From IMG/VR virus record IMGVR_UViG_2799113093_000010: a DNA stretch of 64,000 bases. One strand, written 5' to 3'. A model generated the notes under the pieces. That model made no database searches. It saw only the letters and a list, made by a program, of their open reading frames with translations, and was not told the origin of the DNA. Origin of the DNA: a virus (taxonomy: Duplodnaviria > Heunggongvirae > Uroviricota > Caudoviricetes). Below are positions 32,321 through 60,082 of this stretch, piece after piece. The translations under genes and the position numbers were made by a program. The number at the start of each line of letters is the position of its first letter. Position 1 is the stretch's first letter.

Positions 32321-33042
32321 CCGAACTCGGTGGGCACGTACACCTGGGTTTGGGAGCGTATGAAATCCGACTCGCGGGGCGGCTGGTCGGACTCAGTAAC
32401 CCGGATCAGGAGCCGCCAACCGCGGGTCTTGGCTGCAGTCGCGGTGTGGATGTTCCACCAGTCCCACGACAGCCACTGGCCGGGCGCGGCGTCCAGGAAG
32501 TCGTGATCGTCCAGGTGCTCGGCGGCGTTCACCGCCTCCGACATCTCGCGGTACAGGCCCGAGTCCTCGCCGTGCTCCAGCCCGATGATGAACGGGCAGC
32601 GCATGAACCGGGTTGGGCAGTCGTTACCGACATGGATGGTGTGGAACCGCGGCGCATACCCCCGAGACTCCAGGTCCGCTTGAATCGACAGCGACGGCGC
32701 ACCCGTGTTCGAGGCGCTCGCCGACATCAGGCTTGCCTCGTGGTCCGTATCGCCGACCCGGCGTGGCACGCCGTCGGTGTGCCAGCCCGGGATCGCAGGG
32801 ATGAACCCGGGCAGCAGCATCGACACCTTCGTATCGACATGCACGTGCTTGTGGTCGCCGACGATCGGTGCCTGCTCCAGACAGCGGCGCACCGCGGGTC
32901 CCCCGAACAGAAGCGCGTTCTCCAGGCTCGCGCGCTCCAAGTTCGGGGTCGCCGGGATGCACATCAGGTCGCGGAACCCGAACACGTCGGTAACCGACGG
33001 TCCGAGTTCCACCGGCGTGACGTTGAACGTGTACGACTTCAC
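32314..33042 (-). CDS. putative Fe(II)/2-oxoglutarate dioxygenase (PhyH-like), paralog A (about 242 aa)
   Basis: GTG at 33042 overlaps the Ro60 stop (GTGA). Motifs GWHTDG (HxD), distal FHTIHVGN, and an Arg about 9 aa later. Paralogous to 42247..42954. Confidence 0.45.
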   Translation of the reverse strand: MKSYTFNVTPVELGPSVTDVFGFRDLMCIPATPNLERASLENALLFGGPAVRRCLEQAPIVGDHKHVHVDTKVSMLLPGFIPAIPGWHTDGVPRRVGDTDHEASLMSASASNTGAPSLSIQADLESRGYAPRFHTIHVGNDCPTRFMRCPFIIGLEHGEDSGLYREMSEAVNAAEHLDDHDFLDAAPGQWLSWDWWNIHTATAAKTRGWRLLIRVTESDQPPRESDFIRSQTQVYVPTEFGW

Positions 33043-34766
33043 AGGTCGCCGCGGGAGAAATCGGCCAGCAGCTGCGGCACTGCGGAGTCGAACCCGGACA
33101 CGTCGAGCTGCCCCGGGTCGGTCGGATCCGCGATGCTGTTGCCGGTCGCGGTCATCGCGACAACCACCAGGCGTGCATCGATGCCCATGGTGTCCCGGTA
33201 CTCGCGGAGCGCCTGGTGCGGATGCATCGACCCGTAGAACGTCTCGTTGTCGGTGTAGACGTGGAACGTGTCGATCTCGATCCGGTTCTTGCGCGCCCAG
33301 ATCATCGGCAGCGCGCAGTCGGTGTTCCCGAAGTCCAGCTCGCCGGTGTAGCGGCACACGTCGTCGAGACGCCGGCGCGGGGTGATGTCCAGCGGCGCCA
33401 CCGCCGTCGCATACCCGCGGAAGTGGCCGGTGCGCGAATGCACGTAGCTGCCAGGCCCGGCGGTGAAGCCGATGATCTGGTGATCCGTCTCGACGTTGGC
33501 AGTGACCAGCGCCAGGGCGGCTGCGGCCTCGCGGCACGACACCGGCAGCCCGGACACCGACCGCGTCATCGACCCGGACACGTCCAGAGCCAGCAGCGTC
33601 CGCTTACCGGCAGGCTCGACCGCGCCATAGGCGTTGTAGAACGCGGCATCGAGCGCGTCGACGATCCGCGCCACCGGCATCCAAGTGGAGTCGCCGCGCG
33701 CCGAGTGGCCCGACGCGTAGGTGCGCAGCGCCACCAGCGCGTTGATCGGATGCACGCGGCCCTTCCGCAGCCGCTCGGAGTCCTGCAGCTGCGCGGCGAC
33801 CTTGTTCCCGATGGTGCCGGCGAGGACACCGAGGCGAGTCAGGCGCGGCAGCTGCCGCATCAGCGCAGTCTGGGGCAGACCGTGCTCGATCAGCGCCTCC
33901 CACACCTCCGGCTTGGTGAGCGCGGCGTCGGGCAGCGCCTCCCACGGAAGAGCGTTGCCACGCTTGATGATCTTCACCCAGTCCCGCGCCGTGGTGGCAC
34001 GCTGCGCGTCCTCGAAGTCGGCGATGATCGCCAGCGGGTGGCCGTCGCTCAGCTCGATATCGGGCAGCTTGGGGCGTGCGGTGTTCCGGTCGCCGGCCTT
34101 CAGCTCGTCCGGGTTCAGCTCGCGGACCTTGTCGGCGTAGTCGTTGAGGCCCTTGCCGACAGCCCAGTTGAACGCGAGGCGCCGCGCCGGGTCCTTCGTG
34201 ACGGGCGAGGAGAGCCGCAGCAGGTCGCGGTGCATCCATCCCTCGCGCTGCCGGTACTTGACCAGCTGGTAGGCGACACGGTCGACGCCCTTGTCCAGAT
34301 ACCAGGAGCCGACCGCACGCTTCATCGCCGGACCCCAGCCACGGAACTGCTCCATGTACTTCACGAACAGGTACAGGTGGGTGCCGGTGCGCGCCACGCT
34401 GGGCAGAGCGGCAGCCGCGGCGCGGCGTCCCTCCACGTCATCGGAGGCTGCGGCGACCGCGAGCGCGAACAGCGCCGGGTTCTGCTTCGGCGCCCGGCCA
34501 GCGACCGACACCTCCACGATGTGCTGCACCAGCCGCACCGGATCCGCGGCGGCGGCACGGAACACCACCTCGGCGTTCTCCCGAGTCAGCTCGGCCGCGT
34601 TGGTGTAGTAGGTGCCGCCGTCGGTACCCAGCGTCAGGAACCGGTGCAGCCTCACCTCGTCGGACACCGCGAACGCGAACCCGCCGGCCGCGTTCTTCAC
34701 CTGCCGGGGGTCCGCCTTCACCGTCTGCGCGGTGCGGCGGGTGCTGATCGTCGAAAGAACGTCCAT
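33039..34766 (-). CDS. rsr: Ro60 ortholog (Rsr): TROVE domain plus C-terminal vWA domain (about 575 aa)
   Basis: TROVE-like N-terminal region (MDVLSTISTRRTAQTVKADPRQVKNAAGGFAFAV..., HLYLFVKYMEQFRGWG). vWA MIDAS motif LALDVSGSMT. RBS CAGAGGAGA before the ATG at 34766. The 115-aa upstream extension in the track ORF overlaps the ncRNA array and is rejected. Confidence 0.8.
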   Translation of the reverse strand: MDVLSTISTRRTAQTVKADPRQVKNAAGGFAFAVSDEVRLHRFLTLGTDGGTYYTNAAELTRENAEVVFRAAAADPVRLVQHIVEVSVAGRAPKQNPALFALAVAAASDDVEGRRAAAAALPSVARTGTHLYLFVKYMEQFRGWGPAMKRAVGSWYLDKGVDRVAYQLVKYRQREGWMHRDLLRLSSPVTKDPARRLAFNWAVGKGLNDYADKVRELNPDELKAGDRNTARPKLPDIELSDGHPLAIIADFEDAQRATTARDWVKIIKRGNALPWEALPDAALTKPEVWEALIEHGLPQTALMRQLPRLTRLGVLAGTIGNKVAAQLQDSERLRKGRVHPINALVALRTYASGHSARGDSTWMPVARIVDALDAAFYNAYGAVEPAGKRTLLALDVSGSMTRSVSGLPVSCREAAAALALVTANVETDHQIIGFTAGPGSYVHSRTGHFRGYATAVAPLDITPRRRLDDVCRYTGELDFGNTDCALPMIWARKNRIEIDTFHVYTDNETFYGSMHPHQALREYRDTMGIDARLVVVAMTATGNSIADPTDPGQLDVSGFDSAVPQLLADFSRGDL

Positions 34767-34793
34767 CGGTGTCTCCTCTGAAATGCGGGTGGG

Positions 34794-34869
34794 GGCAGCG
34801 CGGGCGTGTGAATGACAGCCGGGTTGGTTCCGTTCGAAGGGGATAACCGACCGTCGTCCTGCTCGCGCC
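34794..34869 (-). ncRNA. truncated Y-RNA-like unit (YrlB-like; Ro-binding helix motifs without tRNA-like domain)
   Basis: Carries the GAGCAGGACGACGGUCGGUUAUCC and CACACGCCC motifs shared with the three units upstream. It lacks a T-arm and D-arm. It lies immediately 5' of the rsr RBS. Confidence 0.35.
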
Positions 34870-34902
34870 ACCCCCAACTGGGGCTGTGGCTCGTGTCGCG
34901 AG

Positions 34903-35047
34903 GCGGTGTGGGCGTGTGTTTGCCGACCGGTGTTTTTAGGCGTCCTAGGCCGCTGGACGACGGGGCCGCTATGCAGTCCCGGCAGGATTCGAACCTGCGT
35001 ATCCCGCTCCCGATGCGATAACCGATTGAGCGTCCTGCTCACACCGC
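34903..35047 (-). ncRNA. Y-RNA-like tRNA-mimic ncRNA, unit 3 (YrlA-like)
   Basis: Read on the minus strand it shows, in order: a 5' helix strand with GAGCAGGACGC...CGGUUAUC; a T-arm GCAGG-UUCGAAU-CCUGC; a capped acceptor-like hairpin; a D-arm GUCC-AGCGGCCUA-GGAC; and a 3' strand (CACCGGUCGG...CACACGCCCACACCGC) complementary to the 5' end. Confidence 0.5.
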
Positions 35048-35063
35048 TACGCGACGTTTGTGG

Positions 35064-35205
35064 GGTTGATGCGGGCGTGTGTGTGCTGACCGGGGTTAAG
35101 TGCTCTGCCAACTGAGCTACAGCCGCGAAGCGACTGACGGGACTCGAACCCGCGACCTCTCCATTAGAAGTGGATAACCGACCTGCGTCCTGCTCGCATC
35201 AAACC
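35064..35205 (-). ncRNA. Y-RNA-like tRNA-mimic ncRNA, unit 2 (YrlA-like)
   Basis: T-arm CGCGGG-UUCGAGU-CCCG. Acceptor-like 7-bp hairpin CAGUCGC-UUCG-GCGGCUG with a UUCG tetraloop. D-arm UAGCUCAGUUGGCAGAGCA. Its termini pair (GGUUUGAUGCG / CGCAUCAACC). It carries the conserved GCAGGUCGGUUAUCC motif. Confidence 0.55.
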
Positions 35206-39468: not shown

Positions 39469-39909
39469 TCACGACTCGGCCCCGGCCTCGATGAGCTTCT
39501 CAGCCCAGGCGACAGCGACCGCCGCGACCTGAATCAGCTCCGCGCACAGGTTGAATCGCAGCGCTCCCGCCGCCTCCGCACCCATCCGATGCGTCTTCAG
39601 GTCCAGATGAGTTGCGGCGTCGATCGCCTCCGCGACCTCCTCCACAAGGATGTGCCCCCACGTCACCTCGCCCTCTTGGGCGGCCTTCTGGCATAGGTAT
39701 TTTGCACGGATCGCGGTGGGGATCCCGTACTCCTGGGCCATGCGTTCCGGGGTGCATCCGCCCTGGCGTTGCGTGAGCACGGTGTCCACGTTGTGGTGGT
39801 TCTGGTTGCCCCACTTCGCGGTCTGCGCCAGGCGCTCGTAGACGATCATCTGCAAGACGCGACGAGTGGGGGAGGTGGTCGTGTCGACGGCCGGTTCGAT
39901 GGGCATCAC
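39469..39909 (-). CDS. hypothetical protein, possibly MazG-like all-alpha NTP pyrophosphohydrolase (146 aa)
   Basis: EE..E..D-type acidic helix ILVEEVAEAIDAATHLD; weak evidence. Confidence 0.3.
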   Translation of the reverse strand: MMPIEPAVDTTTSPTRRVLQMIVYERLAQTAKWGNQNHHNVDTVLTQRQGGCTPERMAQEYGIPTAIRAKYLCQKAAQEGEVTWGHILVEEVAEAIDAATHLDLKTHRMGAEAAGALRFNLCAELIQVAAVAVAWAEKLIEAGAES

Positions 39910-40469
39910 GACTCACCGCATCCCGCGTCGCCGAACTCATCCCACGGGACGAACCGGTCAACGTAGTGGCGCGGCGACGCACCCGGCCACGCAGGTCCGC
40001 TGCACCAGAAGCCCCACAGCCGGGTACGCGGCCCAGTGACGATCAACGTCCAGCAGGGCAGCGCGCGTAGGCGCGGCCGGATACGGGTGCGCTCCACGGA
40101 CGTGGCCGGCGCCTTGACCAGCTCGACGCGGTGCCGCCATAACGCCGGCCGGAATACCAGCGGGCGGTCGCCCCAGAACAAGCGCCATAGCTCCGGTGCC
40201 GACCGAACCGAGCGGCCGTCGTCGGTGACCTCGATGTACTGCCCCCACAACACCAGCGACAGAAACCACCACGGATGGTCATGAAGCGCCCGGTCATCGT
40301 CGTCGCGTAGGAACTTGTGGAGGTAGACGTTCAGCCAACGGTTCCTCGGGATCACGTACCAGCGCAGCAGGTACGGGGGTTCGCCTTCCGAGCCGATGGG
40401 CTGGTGGGGTTCCAGCCGGACCCACTTCCGCAGCCATCGGTGGTTGTTCGGTCCTGTGGTGGTGCTCAT
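39906..40469 (-). CDS. hypothetical protein (about 187 aa)
   Basis: Start MSTTTGPNNHRWLRKW...; Trp-rich. The upstream 118 aa of the track ORF are P/R-rich junk. Confidence 0.4.
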   Translation of the reverse strand: MSTTTGPNNHRWLRKWVRLEPHQPIGSEGEPPYLLRWYVIPRNRWLNVYLHKFLRDDDDRALHDHPWWFLSLVLWGQYIEVTDDGRSVRSAPELWRLFWGDRPLVFRPALWRHRVELVKAPATSVERTRIRPRLRALPCWTLIVTGPRTRLWGFWCSGPAWPGASPRHYVDRFVPWDEFGDAGCGES

Positions 40470-40638
40470 CGGTTCTCCTTGGCTGCTGGTTGGTTGGGTC
40501 GTTGCTTCTGGTGCAGTGGCATCACGCCGTCGCGGCGGATCCGGTACGAGCGCTGGCAGGTTGGGCAGTAGGCGCGGCCTTTGCGCGGTCGGGTGAGCGG
40601 GACCTTGCCGCTGCCGGCGCATACCTCGTCGCGGGCGT

Positions 40639-41283
40639 TCACCGCTGGTCCTGGAGGCGCCCGAAGGCGCGGAGCACGGCAGCGGCGGCCTCAACGGAGT
40701 CCCACGCGGAACGGTCTCCGCTGTTGCGGTCCGGGTGGGCTCTAGCTCGTGCGGCTCGGTAGACCTTGTCGAGCGGCGAATTTTTGTCGCCAGCGGCAAG
40801 CCGGAGGTGGAGTTCAGCGTCATCGGCGGATTGGCCTCCGGGGGCTGGAGCTCCTGCGGAAGGGAGTTGCTTCCACCCGTCGTACTGCTGCCCGGTTTGG
40901 GTGACGCCGTAACGGTCCACCTTGCGGAGCGCTTCGAGCGCGAGGGCGATGGCGCGGAGGTTGTCCTGCCAGTTGGTGAACGTGTCGCAGGGGAACGACA
41001 GTGGTCCTGTGCGGGATTCGATGTTCAGGATGACGCCGGGGTGCTCGGGTTTGGCTGTGGCGCGGGGCATCCCGTCGATACGGAAGTCTTGCTCGCGCAT
41101 CGCGATTTGGAGGATGGCTGGCGCGTTCTGCCTGCCGCTTCCGAGGTACCAGAGTTCCCGGTCGAGCAGGTTGAGGGTTTCGCTCCACTGCGCGGAGAAG
41201 TTCGAGCGGCGGCGTTCCTGGGTGAGCTGGTGCGGCCAGGCGGTGATCGGGCGCAGGGTCATGTTCGTGGGGTAGCTCGTCAT
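40639..41283 (-). CDS. J-domain (DnaJ-like) protein (about 214 aa)
   Basis: C-terminal J-domain with HPD motif (KVYRAARARAHPDRNSGDRSAWDSVEAAAAVL). ATG at 41283 overlaps the stop of the initiator-like gene (ATGA). Confidence 0.6.
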   Translation of the reverse strand: MTSYPTNMTLRPITAWPHQLTQERRRSNFSAQWSETLNLLDRELWYLGSGRQNAPAILQIAMREQDFRIDGMPRATAKPEHPGVILNIESRTGPLSFPCDTFTNWQDNLRAIALALEALRKVDRYGVTQTGQQYDGWKQLPSAGAPAPGGQSADDAELHLRLAAGDKNSPLDKVYRAARARAHPDRNSGDRSAWDSVEAAAAVLRAFGRLQDQR

Positions 41284-42218
41284 GCGGACTCCTTGGGTGC
41301 TTCGGGGTTGCATTGGCAGCGGCGGAGGCTGTCGTGGTCGTTGTCGATCCAGCCGCGTCCCCCGCAGTCGGTGCAGGCGGCGATGCGGGCGCGGCGTTCG
41401 GCTTTCTCGCGGGCGGGGCGTTCGGCGTCCCAGGCTTCGCGGCGTTCGCGGTGGCGCTGGCATGCGCGGCACGGGTCGTCGGTGCCGCCGGGGTGCTTTG
41501 GGCAGAATTCGGGGGGCGGCGCGGAGCGCTCCCCAACCCAGGTACCTACGGAAGGTGAGATAACACCCTGACCCTCACCCTGACCCGACCCTGAGGCGAA
41601 CCCTTCTCCAAAGGGTTTCGGGAAGGGTTCCATTTCCCCAGGTGGCGGAAACCCTTCCGATAACCCTTCATCAAAGCCTTCTGTAAAGGGTTCAGGAAAG
41701 GGTTCCGATAACCCTTGGGTAAGGGTTCCCAAGTGCGCCAACGCTTCCGCGTGTGCCCGCTTCAAGTTGTCACGGAGCTTCACTGCCTTCGGGCTTTCGC
41801 CCGCGATGGAGGGCAGCGGTACTCGCTCCAGCTCCTCGGCGAGGATGTACGCGAGTTTCGGCGACTCCACGTGGCCCGCCGAGCGGAGCGCGGACAGCAT
41901 CACGTTGGGCTGCTTTCCGACCTCGTCTCGGCGCATGAACGACCGCACCAAGGTTTCCCCGGTGTCCTCGTCGGTGAACACGTACCGGCTGCGCTCCAGC
42001 CGGACCAAGGCCTCCTCGACGGCCGACTCCTGGGGTATGCGCCCGCGCTGGCGGAGGGCCTTCCGCCAGCGCCGCATGTTGATCGGCTGCACCCCGGCGT
42101 AGTTCATGGCCGGTTGTGCGATCAGCACACAGAACAGGAGCTTGTCGAACACCTCCTGCGCGCAGAAGTCCTCATCGGTCCACATCGAGAACCACATGCG
42201 CCCGTACTCGCGAGGCAC
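41280..42218 (-). CDS. putative replication initiator-like protein with internal repeat-encoded linker and C-terminal zinc ribbons (about 312 aa)
   Basis: GTG start at about 42218 after the RBS GGAAGGGGAG. N-terminal globular domain. Low-complexity linker EPFPEPFTEGFDEGLSEGFPPPGEMEPFPKPFGEGF encoded by the repeat array at 41560-41730. C-terminal Cys pairs CPKH...CRAC and CTDC...CQC. Confidence 0.45.
   Translation of the reverse strand: MPREYGRMWFSMWTDEDFCAQEVFDKLLFCVLIAQPAMNYAGVQPINMRRWRKALRQRGRIPQESAVEEALVRLERSRYVFTDEDTGETLVRSFMRRDEVGKQPNVMLSALRSAGHVESPKLAYILAEELERVPLPSIAGESPKAVKLRDNLKRAHAEALAHLGTLTQGLSEPFPEPFTEGFDEGLSEGFPPPGEMEPFPKPFGEGFASGSGQGEGQGVISPSVGTWVGERSAPPPEFCPKHPGGTDDPCRACQRHRERREAWDAERPAREKAERRARIAACTDCGGRGWIDNDHDSLRRCQCNPEAPKESA
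41599..41727. repeat. iteron-like array: 9 copies of AAGGGTT/AACCCTT in both orientations; extended consensus GGAAGGGTTCC
   Basis: Copies at 41599, 41611, 41623, 41650, 41662, 41686, 41698, 41710 and 41721. An adjacent CCCTGA hexamer tandem lies at 41566-41594. Confidence 0.7.
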
Positions 42219-42246
42219 TACCGCTCCCCTTCCGTCTTGTTGTTGT

Positions 42247-42954
42247 TCACCAGCCGAACTCCGTGGGTACATACACCTGCGTCTGGGACCGGATGAATCC
42301 CGAATCCAACGGGGGCTGGTCTGATTCCGTCACCCGGATGAGGAGCCGCCATCCACGCCAATCCGCAGGCGTCGCGGTGTGGACGTTCCACCAATTCCAC
42401 GAAAGCCACTGCTCCAGAGGAGAATCCAGATACGCGCCTCGCTCGGAATATGGCGCGCTCTCAACCTTTTGTGACAGTTCGCGATACAGGCCCGAGTCCT
42501 CGCCATGTTCCAGGTCAACGACCCACGGTTTGCGCATGAACCTTGTTGGGCAGTGGTTTCCGACATGGATGGTGTGGAACCGGGGCCGGTACCCCTTCGC
42601 ATCTTGGGCGCCCTGAGCCTTCATAGATGGAGGGCCAGCGTTGAACGGTGATCCGACCTGCTCCGTTACGGTGTGGAGACGTGGGACGCCATCGGTGTGC
42701 CAGCCCGGTATCGCCGGGATGAAGCCCGGCAGCAGCAGAGATACCTTCGTGTCCACGAACACGTGCTCGTGGTCACCGACTATCGGGGCTTGCTCCAAGC
42801 AGCGCCGCACCGCAGGGCCACCGAACAGCACCGCGTTCTGCAGGCTCGCGCGCTCCAGGTTTGGTGTGGCCGGCAGGCACCCCCGCTCCTGCGCGTAGAA
42901 CTCGACGTGCGCGCCGTGCTTTGGCGGCTCAACGTTGAATGTGTAGGCGGTCAC
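42247..42954 (-). CDS. putative Fe(II)/2-oxoglutarate dioxygenase (PhyH-like), paralog B (about 235 aa)
   Basis: GTG at 42954 overlaps the upstream stop (GTGA). Motifs GWHTDG, FHTIHVGNHCPTRFM. About 70% aa identity to 32314..33042, with near-identical 3' ends. Confidence 0.45.
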   Translation of the reverse strand: MTAYTFNVEPPKHGAHVEFYAQERGCLPATPNLERASLQNAVLFGGPAVRRCLEQAPIVGDHEHVFVDTKVSLLLPGFIPAIPGWHTDGVPRLHTVTEQVGSPFNAGPPSMKAQGAQDAKGYRPRFHTIHVGNHCPTRFMRKPWVVDLEHGEDSGLYRELSQKVESAPYSERGAYLDSPLEQWLSWNWWNVHTATPADWRGWRLLIRVTESDQPPLDSGFIRSQTQVYVPTEFGW

Positions 42955-43388
42955 CGGACTACCTGCCACGGCTTGTCGTCGCGGACCTTCCAGCCGAGGC
43001 CGGGGAGCTCGGGCCCACTTTCGACTTCCACCTGCTTGTCGCTCGGCGGCTGGACCACGAGCCATGTCAACCTCTGTTCAGCGTCCGAGTAGTAGCGGCG
43101 GGCGAAGCGCCCGTCCCCGTGGGTAGCGACGGTGCCCTCGGGCAGGCCCAGCCGGGAGGTGTTGATGGCGCAAAGGATTACGCGGAGGACCTCGGCGCGG
43201 CCTGCATAATGAAGGCCGCCGTTCGCCTGGTTGCAGTTGGCCTTCAGCCAAGCTCCGGTGAGTAGCTTGTCCAGCGCGATCGTGGCCGCCAGTCTCTCGC
43301 GGTCGTTGATGGTGACGCGGCCATCTAGATACCCCGGGGTGTTGTCGGTCTGTTGTTCTGCGGCGGTGATCATTTCGCTGAGGTCCAT
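42951..43388 (-). CDS. hypothetical protein (about 145 aa)
   Basis: RBS CAAGGAGAACCC before the ATG at 43388. Confidence 0.45.
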   Translation of the reverse strand: MDLSEMITAAEQQTDNTPGYLDGRVTINDRERLAATIALDKLLTGAWLKANCNQANGGLHYAGRAEVLRVILCAINTSRLGLPEGTVATHGDGRFARRYYSDAEQRLTWLVVQPPSDKQVEVESGPELPGLGWKVRDDKPWQVVR

Positions 43389-50886: not shown

Positions 50887-52104
50887 TTAGTTCTCCTTCT
50901 GTTGGGTGGGGAAGTCGGCCGCGAGAAGTGCGGTCGCCTCGTCTTCGGACAGGTCGTTAAGGTCCGAAATCTCTCGGTTGATCACCGTTTTGATCTGGGC
51001 GTACGTCGTGGCCGCCGCCTCCTTGGTGCGGAGCGAGTAGCCGGCGTTGCCCAGGAGCCCGCGCAGGGTGCCCAGGTCCTTCTTGGTGGCGAGGTACTCG
51101 CCTTGCGAATTGACCTCTGCAGCAGGGTCATCGGACGTTGCGGCGCCGGACGGTGGCGGCGTGGAAAGCACACCGTCCGGCGCGGGGACCTCCTCGGCCG
51201 CGGGCTCTGTAGCACCGACACCCTGTTCCGGGTGCTCTGAGGTGGGTGCCAGATCACCGGCTGACGGTGCCTCGGGGTCCTTCTGTGTTGGCTTCGTGGG
51301 TTCGGCAGCGCGCGAAGTGATGTCGGCTTCGGTCAGCTGCGCGGTGGACGTGAAGACCTCGGTCTTGTCCATCCCGTCGCGGGTAATGGAGGTGTAGGTG
51401 ATACCCATCTGCGCGACGTCGCCGGCGTCCCAGGAGCCGCGCTTCTTCCCGATCTTGGCTTCCATCTGTGCCTGGGTGATACCCAGCTCCTGCCGGAACT
51501 TCGACACCATGGTTTCGATGCGGTCCTTGAGCGGAACGCCCTCGCCGTTCTCCAGGGTGTTGCGGCACAGGTCCTGCGCCATCTCGGTGAACCACTTCGG
51601 GAGGATCGCCGAGATGCATTCGCGGACAGCGCGAGCACCGGCGTTGTTGTTGTTGTTCGTGATGTCGCCGAGGTCGGTCAGCTCCTCGCGTCGGCCGCGC
51701 GCCATGCGGGCGTGCGGGACGATGAAGGTGCGGGTGGCGCGAGTGTTGGTCTGGACATCCCATGCCCATGCCTGGATCTCAGACTCGGCCTTGACGTCGT
51801 CGCGGTGCAGCTCGTTGACGCCGTATTGGACGTTGCCCCACAGTCGGGCCAGCTCGCGCATGAGGTGCACGGACGGGCCGGTGCCGCGGTTGGGTACCTG
51901 GTAGAACGCCTGCGCGGCCATAGCCATGCGGCTGCAGGTGTCCCGCATCTCGGCTTCGGCGCGGTTGAGGTCGCGTGGAATCTGCTGGGCCACAATCACG
52001 GCGGACTGCACTTCGGCGACGGCGCGGGACTGCTCCACCGAGGTCACCTGACTGATGGCGGTGCGCGGTGCGGCGGCGATGGGCTGGTAAGGGGTGACGG
52101 TCAT
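50887..52104 (-). CDS. RecT-like single-strand annealing protein (about 405 aa)
   Basis: Immediately downstream of, and coupled to, a PD-(D/E)xK exonuclease gene (RecE/RecT-type pair). Start MTVTPYQP...; long acidic Pro-rich C-terminal tail. Confidence 0.5.
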   Translation of the reverse strand: MTVTPYQPIAAAPRTAISQVTSVEQSRAVAEVQSAVIVAQQIPRDLNRAEAEMRDTCSRMAMAAQAFYQVPNRGTGPSVHLMRELARLWGNVQYGVNELHRDDVKAESEIQAWAWDVQTNTRATRTFIVPHARMARGRREELTDLGDITNNNNNAGARAVRECISAILPKWFTEMAQDLCRNTLENGEGVPLKDRIETMVSKFRQELGITQAQMEAKIGKKRGSWDAGDVAQMGITYTSITRDGMDKTEVFTSTAQLTEADITSRAAEPTKPTQKDPEAPSAGDLAPTSEHPEQGVGATEPAAEEVPAPDGVLSTPPPSGAATSDDPAAEVNSQGEYLATKKDLGTLRGLLGNAGYSLRTKEAAATTYAQIKTVINREISDLNDLSEDEATALLAADFPTQQKEN

Positions 52105-53000
52105 GCTTCGAGATCTCCTTCTTGCTGGTAGATGGCGTAACTGGGTAGGGACACGGAGTGGATGCCGTCGCCGTAGCCGGGCCACTGGTCGGTGCCGGCG
52201 CAGTGGGCGTAGACGTCGATGGCTTTCCGGTTTCGGCGTCGTCCGAGGTCGACGTCGCGGGCGTCCAGCTCGACGACCGTCACTGGGTATGGGGCGGTCT
52301 TGGACTGGACGATGAACACGAACGCGGCGTCGTCGGCGATCTCGGTGGCGGCCAAGCCGTCGAGGTACCAGGCGACTTGCATGTGGTAGCCGTATTCGGC
52401 TGCCGCCTTGGAGAAGTGGCCTGGGTATGCGGAGGTCGCGGTCTTGTAGTCGACGACGATCAGCCGGTTGCGTCCGGGGTTGGGCAGCCAGTCGGGCCGG
52501 AATCGGAGTCGTACACCGGTGGCCGGGTCGTGCCAGTACCCGGACAGCTCGGGGGTGCCGTCCGATAGCAGCATGCGTGCGATCGGATGCTCGTGCACCT
52601 TGGCCGCCATCGCCTTGGCCTTCTCGACCTCCGCGATGTGCACAGGCACCTGGCCGCGAGCGCGGGCCTCGTCAACTGCCTGCTTCCATCCGGCCGTCGA
52701 CGTCGGCGCGTCCGATACCGAGCCGTCTTTCTTCAACCCGTGCACGGCCGGGTCGAGGACTGCTATGTCGCTGCCCTCGCCGAGCACGTACTTGTGGGCC
52801 AGGTGTCCGAAGTCGTACTGCGGCTTTGGTTTCGGCGGCTCGTTTCGCTGGTGGTCGAACAGTTCCGGGCTCGACGGCGGCAGGAGGCCGCGGGCACCGG
52901 AGGACGAGAGGCTGAAGCGGTCGGCGTGGTACACCTCGTCCGGGATGCCGGCATACACGCCGTCTGCTGCCGGGATCTCGATGTCCTCGGTGGTGGTCAC
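52101..53000 (-). CDS. RecE/RecB-family PD-(D/E)xK exonuclease (299 aa)
   Basis: Motif LIVVDYKTAT (D...DYK) plus downstream QVAWY. Confidence 0.65.
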   Translation of the reverse strand: MTTTEDIEIPAADGVYAGIPDEVYHADRFSLSSSGARGLLPPSSPELFDHQRNEPPKPKPQYDFGHLAHKYVLGEGSDIAVLDPAVHGLKKDGSVSDAPTSTAGWKQAVDEARARGQVPVHIAEVEKAKAMAAKVHEHPIARMLLSDGTPELSGYWHDPATGVRLRFRPDWLPNPGRNRLIVVDYKTATSAYPGHFSKAAAEYGYHMQVAWYLDGLAATEIADDAAFVFIVQSKTAPYPVTVVELDARDVDLGRRRNRKAIDVYAHCAGTDQWPGYGDGIHSVSLPSYAIYQQEGDLEA

Positions 53001-54492: not shown

Positions 54493-54789
54493 TCACGACG
54501 CGTCTCCAAGCGGGCTCGGTGCCTGGCCGCGCGCAAACCGCTGGATGCTGTTGCGGGCGTGGTTGCTTCGTGCCTGGCGACGCAGTGCGGCGGCGTTCTC
54601 GCGCCGGGCCTGACGCGCAGCCCGGTTCTTTCGGCGGCGCTCCTGCACCACCTCCTCTGGCACCGTGCCGGCGTAGGTGTTCATCAGCTGCAGCGCGAAC
54701 AGCACCCCGTGGCCCAGCGACCGCATGTCGGCGTTCGCTTTCTTGTGCAGTGTGGTGAGCGGCGATTCCGGCTTTGGGTTGGTGTTCAC
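54493..54789 (-). CDS. hypothetical basic protein (about 98 aa)
   Basis: GTG at 54789 overlaps the DnaQ-like gene stop (GTGA). Confidence 0.35.
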   Translation of the reverse strand: MNTNPKPESPLTTLHKKANADMRSLGHGVLFALQLMNTYAGTVPEEVVQERRRKNRAARQARRENAAALRRQARSNHARNSIQRFARGQAPSPLGDAS

Positions 54790-55385
54790 TTCGACTCCTG
54801 ACGTGCGACAGCGAGGGTGTGGAGGACTTTGAAGCAGGCGGCCGTGGCGTAGACATCGCCGAGCGCGGTGTGCTCTGCCTTGTTCTCGATGTGGAGGCGC
54901 TCGCACACGGAGTGCAGGCCCGGAATCTTGCGGGGGTCGATCCCGAAAACACCTGCTGCGTAGGCAGATATGTCGGGCATGCGGTACTTCCACAGCTCGC
55001 ACGCCGGCGGCGGTGCGTCGCGACCGAAATACGTGGCGTACGCCAGGTCGTGCCCGGCCTTGATCATCCGAGCGTCGAAGCTGGGGTTCGCCGCGGCGAG
55101 CACGTTGCCCTTCAGCATCTCGATGAGCTGCTGGTATCGGACCCAGGTCCCGGACACACTCTCGCTGTACTTATAGACCTCCCGCTCGTAATAGCGGTTG
55201 ATGCGCAAGGCATCGCCGTCGGCGCGTCCCATCTCCGGGCCCGCGAGGAATGGCACGAAGTACAACTCCTGTCCGGTGTCCACGTTCAGAGCAGCGACCT
55301 CGATCGGGAAGTGCTTTCCGTGAATCAGGCCGGTGGTTTCGACGTCGACCACGATCAGCTGGCCGGTCACGCTGCGGCCTGCCAA
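54786..55385 (-). CDS. DnaQ-like (DEDDh) 3'-5' exonuclease (199 aa)
   Basis: Exo I motif LIVVDVETTG; Exo III HTALGDVYATA. Confidence 0.7.
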   Translation of the reverse strand: MAGRSVTGQLIVVDVETTGLIHGKHFPIEVAALNVDTGQELYFVPFLAGPEMGRADGDALRINRYYEREVYKYSESVSGTWVRYQQLIEMLKGNVLAAANPSFDARMIKAGHDLAYATYFGRDAPPPACELWKYRMPDISAYAAGVFGIDPRKIPGLHSVCERLHIENKAEHTALGDVYATAACFKVLHTLAVARQESK

Positions 55386-58918: not shown

Positions 58919-60082
58919 TCAGGCGCTACTTTCCCAGTACTGCTCAAGGGCGCCGCGAGCATCCGGTCCCTGGGTCTGCCGCTGTAGGTAGTGAGCCTCG
59001 GTGGTCGCCAGCTTGGCGTGGGACAGCTGCTGCTGGGCCTTGTCCGGGCCGTGGGCGTCGCGGATGACCGTGGCAACTGTGCGCCGGAAGCTGTGCGGCG
59101 TGACCCAGTTCAGTTCTTCGGGCAGGGCCGCGCGGAGGGCTCGCCGTAGGTTGGCCAGGCTTACCCATCCGCCATCTCGATTGACGAACACGGGTCCGTC
59201 CATACCCGACTCCCCGATGAGTGCTGTCAGCGTCTCTACACCGAACTTGGGCAAGATCACGGTGTGCGCGGGGGCATCGGACTTCCGCTCTTCCTGACGA
59301 TGTAGGGGCTTTCCTGCGATGCGACCGTGGTCGATCAAGGTACCGGTGATGGTGAGCGTCGGCGGGTCGGCAAGAAGGTCTACATCGCACCACCGAGTGG
59401 CAAGTACTTCATTCGGGCGGCACCCGGTGGCTACGAGCAGGTCTACGAACGCGGGCAGAAGGCGTCCAGGGCGCGGCCCCGGCGCCTTCCGCTCGGCGTA
59501 CTCGCGAACGGCGGCACGGATCTGTCTAAGCTCTGTCGCGTCGGCTGAGCGAGGCTTTCTCCTGCCGGTGCCGACTGTCTTCGTCTCGCGTATCGGATTG
59601 ACGGGCACCACGTCGAACCGGCACGCCATTGAGTACATCCCCGTCAGCACCATCCGCAGCCGTTTGGCCTGACTCTTAGATGCCATGCCTTGGATGTAGT
59701 TGTGAGCGTCTTGAGTCTCCAGCTCGATGACTCGCAAGGATCCCAGCTGCGCTGCGCCGTGCGTCCTCCAGACCGCCCGATACTGATCAACCGTCTGTTG
59801 CTTAACGCCGTCCTCGGCAGCCTTTGTTTCGACCCATAGGTCGAACAGGTCGCCGAGGGCGGTTTTTTCGTTCACCAGCTGACCAGTTTTCGGTGTCCGG
59901 CGTTTCGCCAAGTGCCGTTGTAGGACGCGTCGAGCATCCTCGGCTGACTTCTCGCTGGACCGCTCTACCCGGCGTCGCTTGCCGTCCGAATCGCGTACGT
60001 AGGTGCTCGCGAAAAACTTTCCACCAGAGGACCGTTGGGTAATGCGGCCATGCTCGCCGGGGCGGAGACGTTCTCTAGGCAT
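58919..60082 (-). CDS. int: tyrosine integrase (387 aa)
   Basis: Catalytic-domain motifs TPHSFRRTVAT and LSHAKLATTEAHY (R...HxxR...Y). Confidence 0.9.
   Translation of the reverse strand: MPRERLRPGEHGRITQRSSGGKFFASTYVRDSDGKRRRVERSSEKSAEDARRVLQRHLAKRRTPKTGQLVNEKTALGDLFDLWVETKAAEDGVKQQTVDQYRAVWRTHGAAQLGSLRVIELETQDAHNYIQGMASKSQAKRLRMVLTGMYSMACRFDVVPVNPIRETKTVGTGRRKPRSADATELRQIRAAVREYAERKAPGPRPGRLLPAFVDLLVATGCRPNEVLATRWCDVDLLADPPTLTITGTLIDHGRIAGKPLHRQEERKSDAPAHTVILPKFGVETLTALIGESGMDGPVFVNRDGGWVSLANLRRALRAALPEELNWVTPHSFRRTVATVIRDAHGPDKAQQQLSHAKLATTEAHYLQRQTQGPDARGALEQYWESSA

Follow-up and report, generated by a model that had tools for sequence, protein, structure and literature searches.

Why should nine exact copies of one heptamer be packed into the middle of a putative replication-initiator gene? 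The window (the whole stretch of 64,000 nucleotides analysed here) looks like an integrated Mycobacterium abscessus prophage, with an integrase gene at 58919-60082, and it contains 14 copies of AAGGGTT/AACCCTT relative to 2.6 expected from shuffles, a number matched in 0 of 100 shuffles of the 64 kb. Nine of these copies, five on the plus strand and four on the minus strand, form a single array (starts at 41599, 41611, 41623, 41650, 41662, 41686, 41698, 41710 and 41721); the five others are scattered singletons, and no second cluster of the motif is present in the window. The count thus confirmed the nine-copy array in both orientations given in the preliminary description of this DNA. With AAGCCTT at 41674-41680 taken as a degenerate tenth copy, the gap in the register closes, and the ten sites, counted from the 41721 end, have start-to-start spacings of 11, 12, 12, 12, 12, 12, 27, 12 and 12 nt. 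The extended palindromic consensus proposed for the repeats holds roughly, in the form nGAAsssTT(T/A/C) on the coding strand, with perfect GAASSSTTC in two copies only; the strict palindrome was accordingly rejected as a site definition, since it fits 2 of the 10 sites. The neighbouring CCCTGA hexamer tandem is real as well, and the whole set of repeats lies within the coding sequence of a minus-strand open reading frame (Table 1), the array corresponding to codons 164-208 and the hexamer tract to codons 210-218, which together encode GTLTQGLSEPFPEPFTEGFDEGLSEGFPPPGEMEPFPKPFGEGFASGSGQGEGQG.

Table 1. Positions of the repeat array, its flanking elements and the surrounding genes in the window
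Feature	Position	Strand	Description
Putative replication initiator gene	41280..42218	-	312 aa, GTG start; winged-helix N-domain, disordered linker, C-terminal Cys/His zinc ribbon
N-terminal globular domain	41721..42218	-	Residues 1 to about 166; presumed origin-binding
Iteron-like array	41599..41727	both orientations	Ten sites, core (G)AAsssTT, 12 bp period; evidence from counts, recoding, conservation and use of other reading frames in homologs
Central spacer element	41631..41645		Coding strand CCACCTGGGGAAATG; splits the array 7 + 3
G/T-rich tract	41564..41591		6-nt period; coding strand GGGTCGGGTCAGGGTGAGGGTCAGGGTG (CCCTGA tandem)
Downstream conserved block	41515..41558		Candidate unwinding/loading region; anchored alignment of 17 homologs
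TCACCT	41553-41558		In downstream block; falls in each of the three reading frames, depending on the homolog
GTTGGGGAG	41529-41537		In downstream block; GTTGGGGRG in homologs
CG-rich run	41515-41528		End of downstream block
C-terminal domain	41280..41528	-	Residues about 231-312; long helix and Cys/His-rich beta hairpin; pLDDT 85-94
Gene downstream of the initiator	40639..41283	-	214 aa; N-terminal alpha/beta domain, C-terminal J-domain-like region; HPD at residues 183-185

Annotation places the gene in a family of replication initiators, in agreement with its earlier description as a putative initiator gene. Its product (hereafter Rep) gave a full-length profile match to phrog_3171, 'replication initiation protein' (E=1.9e-83; residues 20-326 of the 330-aa open reading frame aligned with profile positions 2-314 of 331), a name that is an annotation and not a tested function. 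A tblastn search with the protein matched 176 phage records, including phages of Gordonia, Mycobacterium, Arthrobacter and Rhodococcus among the matches listed, and many of the matches are annotated as 'RepA-like replication initiator' or 'replication initiation protein'. At E<=1e-3, the family comprises 2,417 cluster-50 representatives. A recorded protein of Mycobacteroides abscessus is 97% identical, and a single record in the plasmid collection matched; in a scan of the genome collection, the single-protein query recovered no relatives and an alignment-based query recovered 8 loci. Neither the window protein nor any of 66 aligned homologs matched Pfam, and the NCBIfam, PDB sequence-profile and Foldseek-PDB searches with Rep gave no matches. 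The GTG start agrees with the N-termini of the homologs. Within 41000-42600, no sigma-70-like promoter and no intrinsic terminator were found, and the window contains no tRNA.

An AlphaFold2 model built on the 66 homologs (mean pLDDT 85) has the three-part build that had been proposed for the protein, with a linker between two confident domains. The N-domain (about residues 10-166) is predicted confidently, in the order helix-strand-helix-helix-hairpin that is typical of winged helices; the linker is modelled as disordered, with pLDDT values of 65 at residues 181-190 and below 50 at 194-230. The C-domain carries the conserved residues C239, H242, C250, C253, C282, C285 and C301, and is presumed to recruit host replication proteins; it is replaced by unrelated C-termini in three homologs (P0040 and L009/L011). 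In this model, the array begins where the last N-domain helix ends and continues through the low-confidence linker.

The repeats of the array are selected as DNA and not as peptide, a conclusion supported by five independent lines of evidence. Codon choice in the linker departs from that of the window, with GAA used at 8 of 8 positions (background 24%), TTT at 5 of 7 (6%) and TTA at 2 of 3 (0.5%), and the G+C content of the linker is 53% relative to 69% in the remainder of the gene. When the same peptide was recoded with window codon usage, no more than five copies of the heptamer appeared in any of 200,000 trials, compared with the nine observed. Among five close IMG/VR relatives (92-97% amino acid identity; four distinct gene sequences), 8 of the 9 cores are invariant; variable sites amount to 3 of 63 in the cores versus 15 of 66 in the spacers (Fisher P=0.004), and variable third codon positions to 1 of 19 in the cores versus 77 of 269 elsewhere (P=0.014). 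Linker substitutions in these relatives are mostly non-synonymous, the opposite of the remaining gene. Furthermore, the enrichment of the rare codons GAA and GTT in the linker recurs in homologs of the E-P-F type and of the Gordonia type, where GAA makes up about 65-90% of the Glu codons of the linker versus 14-47% in the remaining gene; no such enrichment is apparent in the clade with the GGGACCC core, whose linker has too few Glu codons. The E-P-F/E-G-F repeats of the linker are a by-product of in-frame GAA-CCC-TTy and its reverse complement GAA-GGG-TTy, and one array copy in the window is translated as G-T-L. We propose that the encoded peptide is a mere flexible tether.

Homologs carry an array at the same position of the gene, down to about 24% protein identity, with cores that are specific to each clade. 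The core GAACCCTTC/GAAGGGTTC, with a peptide of the EPF/EGF type, occurs in Rhodococcus, Mycolicibacterium, Gordonia soli and phage PinkCoffee, and GAACCCTTC was also assigned to Mycobacterium and Gordonia homologs; Gordonia phages and Williamsia carry GAAGGGATC together with its exact reverse complement GATCCCTTy, translated as E-G-I paired with D-P-F. Other M. abscessus prophages have GGGACCC, encoding GPT/GPS, and one homolog (L049, 56% identical overall) has ACATCCC/GGGATGT with a peptide that lacks EPF. The AACCCT/AGGGTT core that is read as E-P-F/E-G-F in the window is read as N-P-x/K-G-x in Actinoallomurus (L010), Yoshi, Thimann, Walrus and L003, and the array of prophiGD05-2 has a period of 11 nt, a unit that cannot be a codon or peptide repeat. 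A linker peptide maintained over scrambled DNA, the pattern that had been set beforehand as the refutation of a DNA-level role, is not what these homologs carry: the DNA array is kept and the peptide may differ entirely. Near relatives (P0010, P0012 and P0016) differ in unit number by blocks of 4 or 8 codons, and the order of repeat orientations differs among homologs. No clear array was found in some remote relatives (Taptic, Vibaki and the Amycolatopsis loci L009/L011).

The common denominator across the clades is little beyond a CCC/GGG triplet, A/T flanks and the 12-nt phase. A simple co-variation of the repeat core with overall N-domain identity was considered and is contradicted by the homologs themselves, as L049/P0002, 66% identical to the window protein in this domain, has CATCCC, whereas the Gordonia soli homolog, at 49%, has the same AACCCTT as the window. 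The core thus does not track N-domain similarity, and the determinants of specificity are not evident.

The conserved DNA extends beyond the array. At the place equivalent to the central spacer element, 12 of 18 representative homologs have CCTG(G/C)(G/C)(G/A/C)AAA, encoded by rare codons; among them are the GGGACCC clade and the homolog with the CATCCC core. The tract with the 6-nt period is family-wide and keeps its position while being translated differently by lineage, as GTT GAG (V-E), GGT CAG (G-Q), GGT TCA (G-S), AGG GTA (R-V) or GGG GTA/GGG GAA (G-V/G-E); of the 5-8 Val codons in the linker, 4-6 are the rare GTT, relative to 0-3 of 9-19 in the remaining gene. Downstream of the tract, the elements follow in a fixed order across 17-18 representatives, namely TCACCT, a stretch of lower G+C (about 15 nt between TCACCT and GTTGGGGAG in the window), GTTGGGGRG and the CG-rich run. 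Local G+C in this block is about 53-55%, compared with 68% for the remaining gene. No truly AT-rich unwinding element was found, the minimum G+C of about 40%, taken over 40 nt, lying inside the array. By their position, the flanking elements are candidates for a melting or loading region. Three other readings of these elements were considered and rejected: a G-quadruplex is not a conserved feature of the tract (five G3 runs in the window, GG runs only in the homologs), a -1 frameshift site at CCT GGG GAA A would require an in-frame X XXY YYZ heptamer, which is absent, and the tract and TCACCT, read as an internal start or a Shine-Dalgarno sequence, have no in-frame start codon.

We consider it likely that the array is the core of the prophage replication origin, embedded in the linker-coding middle of the initiator gene. 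The preliminary description had put forward a candidate origin on the plan of lambda O, and the DNA-level conservation of the array, the annotation of the family and the three-part protein all argue for it; from these we infer that Rep binds the array and that the origin fires there, with the functions outlined below for the flanks and the C-terminal domain. Upon induction, the initiator would be made, and its N-terminal winged-helix domain would bind the ten (G)AAsssTT sites packed at 12-bp intervals, probably as a dimer because the sites are near-palindromic (GAA-N3-TT). The bound initiator would then form a nucleoprotein complex of the kind seen in the lambda O-some or with RepA_N proteins on their Rep boxes, and this complex would destabilise the adjacent block of G/T-rich hexamer tract, TCACCT and lower-GC stretch, and the C-terminal zinc ribbon would recruit the host helicase or primase. 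The scan of genes at 33-60 kb found RecE/RecT-like and DnaQ-like genes and none for a helicase, primase or polymerase, so that a host-recruiting initiator would be needed. GC skew across the window showed no origin-type switch, a measure that is confounded here by the near-uniform gene orientation.

The origin of lambda consists of four inverted-repeat iterons of 18-19 bp with a distinctly AT-rich region after them, unlike the window with its ten short sites and no strongly AT-rich region. The likeness is that of a phage initiator gene carrying iterons in an interdomain segment: in lambda O, the in-gene origin repeats lie between a DNA-binding N-domain and a C-domain that recruits the loader (PMC7157519). 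Neither the window protein nor the 66 homologs matched the Pfam family Phage_rep_O, and no P-like loader gene lies next to Rep in the window, where the downstream gene is J-domain-like; in Thimann alone, an annotated helicase loader gene follows a distant family member, as P follows O in lambda. The nearest parallel with a solved structure, and the one described best, is the RepA_N initiator pSK41 Rep, whose N-terminal domain binds four Rep boxes located centrally in rep, whose central segment is encoded by the origin and serves as a dispensable linker, and whose C-terminal domain binds DnaG (PMC5703833). A RepA_N initiator is also the best structural match of the window N-domain, a likeness with no sequence-level or Foldseek-PDB support: PF06970 matched neither the window protein nor the 66 homologs, and the structures 4PTA/4PT7 were not found by the profile search of PDB sequences at E values up to 10. 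As in the RepA_N initiators (pSK41 Rep and pTZ2162 RepA; PDB 4PTA/4PT7), the repeats are central in rep; in the window protein they lie within or adjoining the low-confidence linker of the model. The two families differ in that RepA_N initiators of low-GC Firmicute plasmids use four longer A-tract Rep boxes, whereas the window family, from actinobacterial phages and prophages of high GC, has ten sites of 7-9 bp spaced with a 12-bp period and a Cys/His zinc ribbon as C-terminal domain.

Two further groups of initiators were compared. Those of the Rep_3 plasmids (RepA/RepE/pi) rely on iterons of about 19-22 bp that are direct repeats and lie outside the gene, in contrast to sites of 7-9 bp in both orientations inside it, and the Rep_3 Pfam model matched neither the window protein nor the 66 homologs. 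The RepA of the cluster A parABS mycobacteriophages (Miko, Rachaly and Jeeves) is likewise an actinobacteriophage initiator with a 'RepA-like' label, for which an origin has been suspected in or next to repA and no repeats were found (PMC7157519). It belongs to a different family, related to the pMSC262-type plasmid RepA, and these three phages are not among the listed tblastn matches of the window protein; furthermore, it maintains extrachromosomal prophages, whereas the prophage in the window carries an integrase.

Protein-level selection on an E-P-F/E-G-F motif or on a low-complexity linker, with no function of the DNA, would fit the recurrence of EPF/EGF/EDF-type linkers in many homologs, but we regard it as very improbable and as largely refuted here: rare codons are used throughout, synonymous recoding fails to reproduce the repeats, synonymous sites in the cores are conserved while intervening residues change, homologous arrays encode unrelated peptides (GPT/GPS, HP/GM and NP/KG), an 11-nt period exists, and the peptides obey a reverse-complement logic (E-G-I with D-P-F, R-P-S with G-G-S). 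Equally little credence goes to a feature of the mRNA, either a rare-codon pause between domains or an RNA structure formed by the inverted copies. The rare-codon cluster does fall exactly at the domain linker, and folding of the segment is somewhat more favourable than that of shuffles (z=-2.4 for RNA, -2.6 for DNA); against this, a pause needs no exact heptamer in both orientations, Rfam gave no match in 40500-43000, and the different orientation orders among homologs imply that there is no conserved pairing scheme. Slippage or duplication might also have produced the array as a neutral tandem repeat in a linker that tolerates it. The changes in unit number among near relatives would suit such a history, which is nevertheless highly unlikely, as inverted copies cannot arise by slippage, the cores are conserved where spacers diverge, and arrays are still present at about 24% protein identity.

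The main alternative to an origin, in itself unlikely, is an operator or copy-control site at which Rep blocks its own transcription or 'handcuffs' copies, replication starting elsewhere in the prophage. Conservation at the DNA level would be equally expected in that case, the iterons of iteron plasmids serve both initiation and control, and an AT-rich unwinding element is not obvious; on the other hand, the window has no second motif cluster, and the conserved flanking block suggests more than an operator. Moreover, in-gene repeats constitute the origin in lambda O (PMC7157519) and in pSK41 (PMC5703833), the two known cases. The sites could instead serve another protein and be lodged in a linker that tolerates them; nucleoid or replication factors of the host, proteins for partition or packaging and the J-domain neighbour would be candidates. 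This we hold to be quite improbable: the minimal common core across clades and the lack of simple co-variation with N-domain similarity speak for it, whereas the array stays with the gene family through differing neighbourhoods in Mycobacterium, Gordonia, Rhodococcus, Williamsia and Actinoallomurus, the J-domain gene is unlinked to Rep in most phages, and clade-specific cores speak against a conserved host factor.

To our knowledge, the replication origins of actinobacteriophages are largely undefined, and no description of this array was found in the searchable literature, where the one related study concerns the different RepA of the cluster A phages (PMC7157519). The design of an origin within an initiator linker is known; the family, its short sites in 12-bp phase and the flanking elements appear not to have been described previously. 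If the array is a true origin, it would extend the in-linker design to a third lineage that is sequence-unrelated to the lambdoid phages and the Firmicute RepA_N plasmids, and would provide a natural example of DNA-site constraints writing a low-complexity protein linker. Rep with about 230 bp could then serve as a compact portable replicon for the genetics of M. abscessus, Gordonia and Rhodococcus, and the clade-specific cores (AACCCTT, GAAGGGAT, GGGACCC and CATCCC) could give compatible vector sets.

A more far-reaching and doubtful possibility, which we offer tentatively, is a multi-part origin common to a large uncurated family of actinobacterial phage initiators, with the hexamer tract as a new element for single-stranded DNA loading or melting. 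Its parts would be the array of short sites, the central CCTGGGGAAA, the 6-nt-periodic G/T tract, TCACCT and the GTTGGGG-CG block, and the tract might be functionally comparable to the DnaA-trios of bacterial oriC. Were this the case, the coding of the linker would be dictated by overlapping cis-acting DNA, with the same sites falling in any of the three frames, depending on the lineage.

The stop/start overlap of the initiator with the gene downstream was borne out, as that gene overlaps the Rep stop codon by ATGA. Its product gave a weak Pfam DnaJ match (E=0.067) and four weak PDB sequence matches, all of them J domains, and 'J-domain-like' is a reasonable designation. The case for the chaperone-assisted loading module that had been proposed on this basis is weak, as the J-domain-like neighbour stands but linkage to Rep is confined to this lineage: the five close relatives are the only ones in which the gene adjoins Rep, whereas it is 2 kb upstream in Malachai, is about 10 kb from Rep on the other strand in Gordonia phages such as Fugax, and occurs in 32 records of Microbacterium phages, a genus absent among the listed Rep matches. 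The J-domain protein was consequently rejected as an obligate partner of Rep across the family. P1 RepA is activated by DnaJ and DnaK, which also remodel the lambda O-P-DnaB complex, and a role of the J-domain protein in activating the Rep of this prophage is therefore no more than possible.

The homolog P0002, encoded at locus L049, shares 56% identity with the window initiator overall and 66% in the N-domain. Its iteron-like cores read ACATCCC/GGGATGT at the positions where the window has AACCCTT, with the 12-nt phase unchanged. The central element is nearly unaltered, as are the hexamer tract, TCACCT and GTTGGGGAGCGCG. L049 looks like a natural specificity switch inside an otherwise fixed origin scaffold.

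The repeat unit itself differs in a sub-family that includes prophiGD05-2 and Gordonia phage Walrus, in which GAACCGTGnnn spans 11 nt, approximately one helical turn; all three frames are therefore used per unit, giving an 11-residue peptide repeat. Among near relatives from Rhodococcus (P0010, P0012 and P0016), the number of repeat units varies by blocks of 4 or 8 codons. The C-terminal domain is unrelated in P0040 (Rhodococcus cerastii) and in the Amycolatopsis homologs L009 and L011; in these Amycolatopsis genes the position of the array is taken by the 13-nt palindrome GTGGAAATTCCAC and an A-tract. The coding (minus) strand of the window hexamer tract, GGGTCGGGTCAGGGTGAGGGTCAGGGTG (41564-41591), contains five G3 runs with loops of 2-3 nt, a canonical G-quadruplex-type motif; this motif may be incidental, because the tract in the homologs has GG runs only.

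Coordinates of homolog loci and of window genes
Feature	Coordinates	Strand	Remark
Homolog P0002	L049:3040-3240		ENA metagenome scaffold
prophiGD05-2	L003:2925-3035		11-nt repeat sub-family
Gordonia phage Walrus	L044:1914-2005		11-nt repeat sub-family
Gordonia phage Thimann, initiator locus	L047:2511-3008		distant relative
phrog_850 gene	33039-35111	-	'RNA-binding protein', 690 aa
phrog_4786 gene	39906-40823	-	'cysteine dioxygenase', longest ORF
Exonuclease VIII (RecE)-like gene	50887-53000	-	
DnaQ-like exonuclease gene	54786-55385	-	
Tyrosine-integrase-like gene	58919-60082	-	

In Thimann, a gene annotated 'helicase loader' directly follows the initiator gene, an order like that of lambda O-P, whereas the window has no such arrangement. 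The longest phrog_4786 ORF of the window shares ~185 nt with the end of the J-domain gene (40639-41283, minus strand), and with its PHROG match starting at residue 120, the real start probably lies further downstream. The tyrosine-integrase-like, RecE-like, DnaQ-like and phrog_850 genes of the window make up a prophage context. Nearly all genes between 2.4 and 58 kb occupy the minus strand, and the gene adjoining the RecE-like gene is weakly RecT-like in its C-terminal part. The G+C content falls to ~0.60 at 26-28 kb and past 60 kb.
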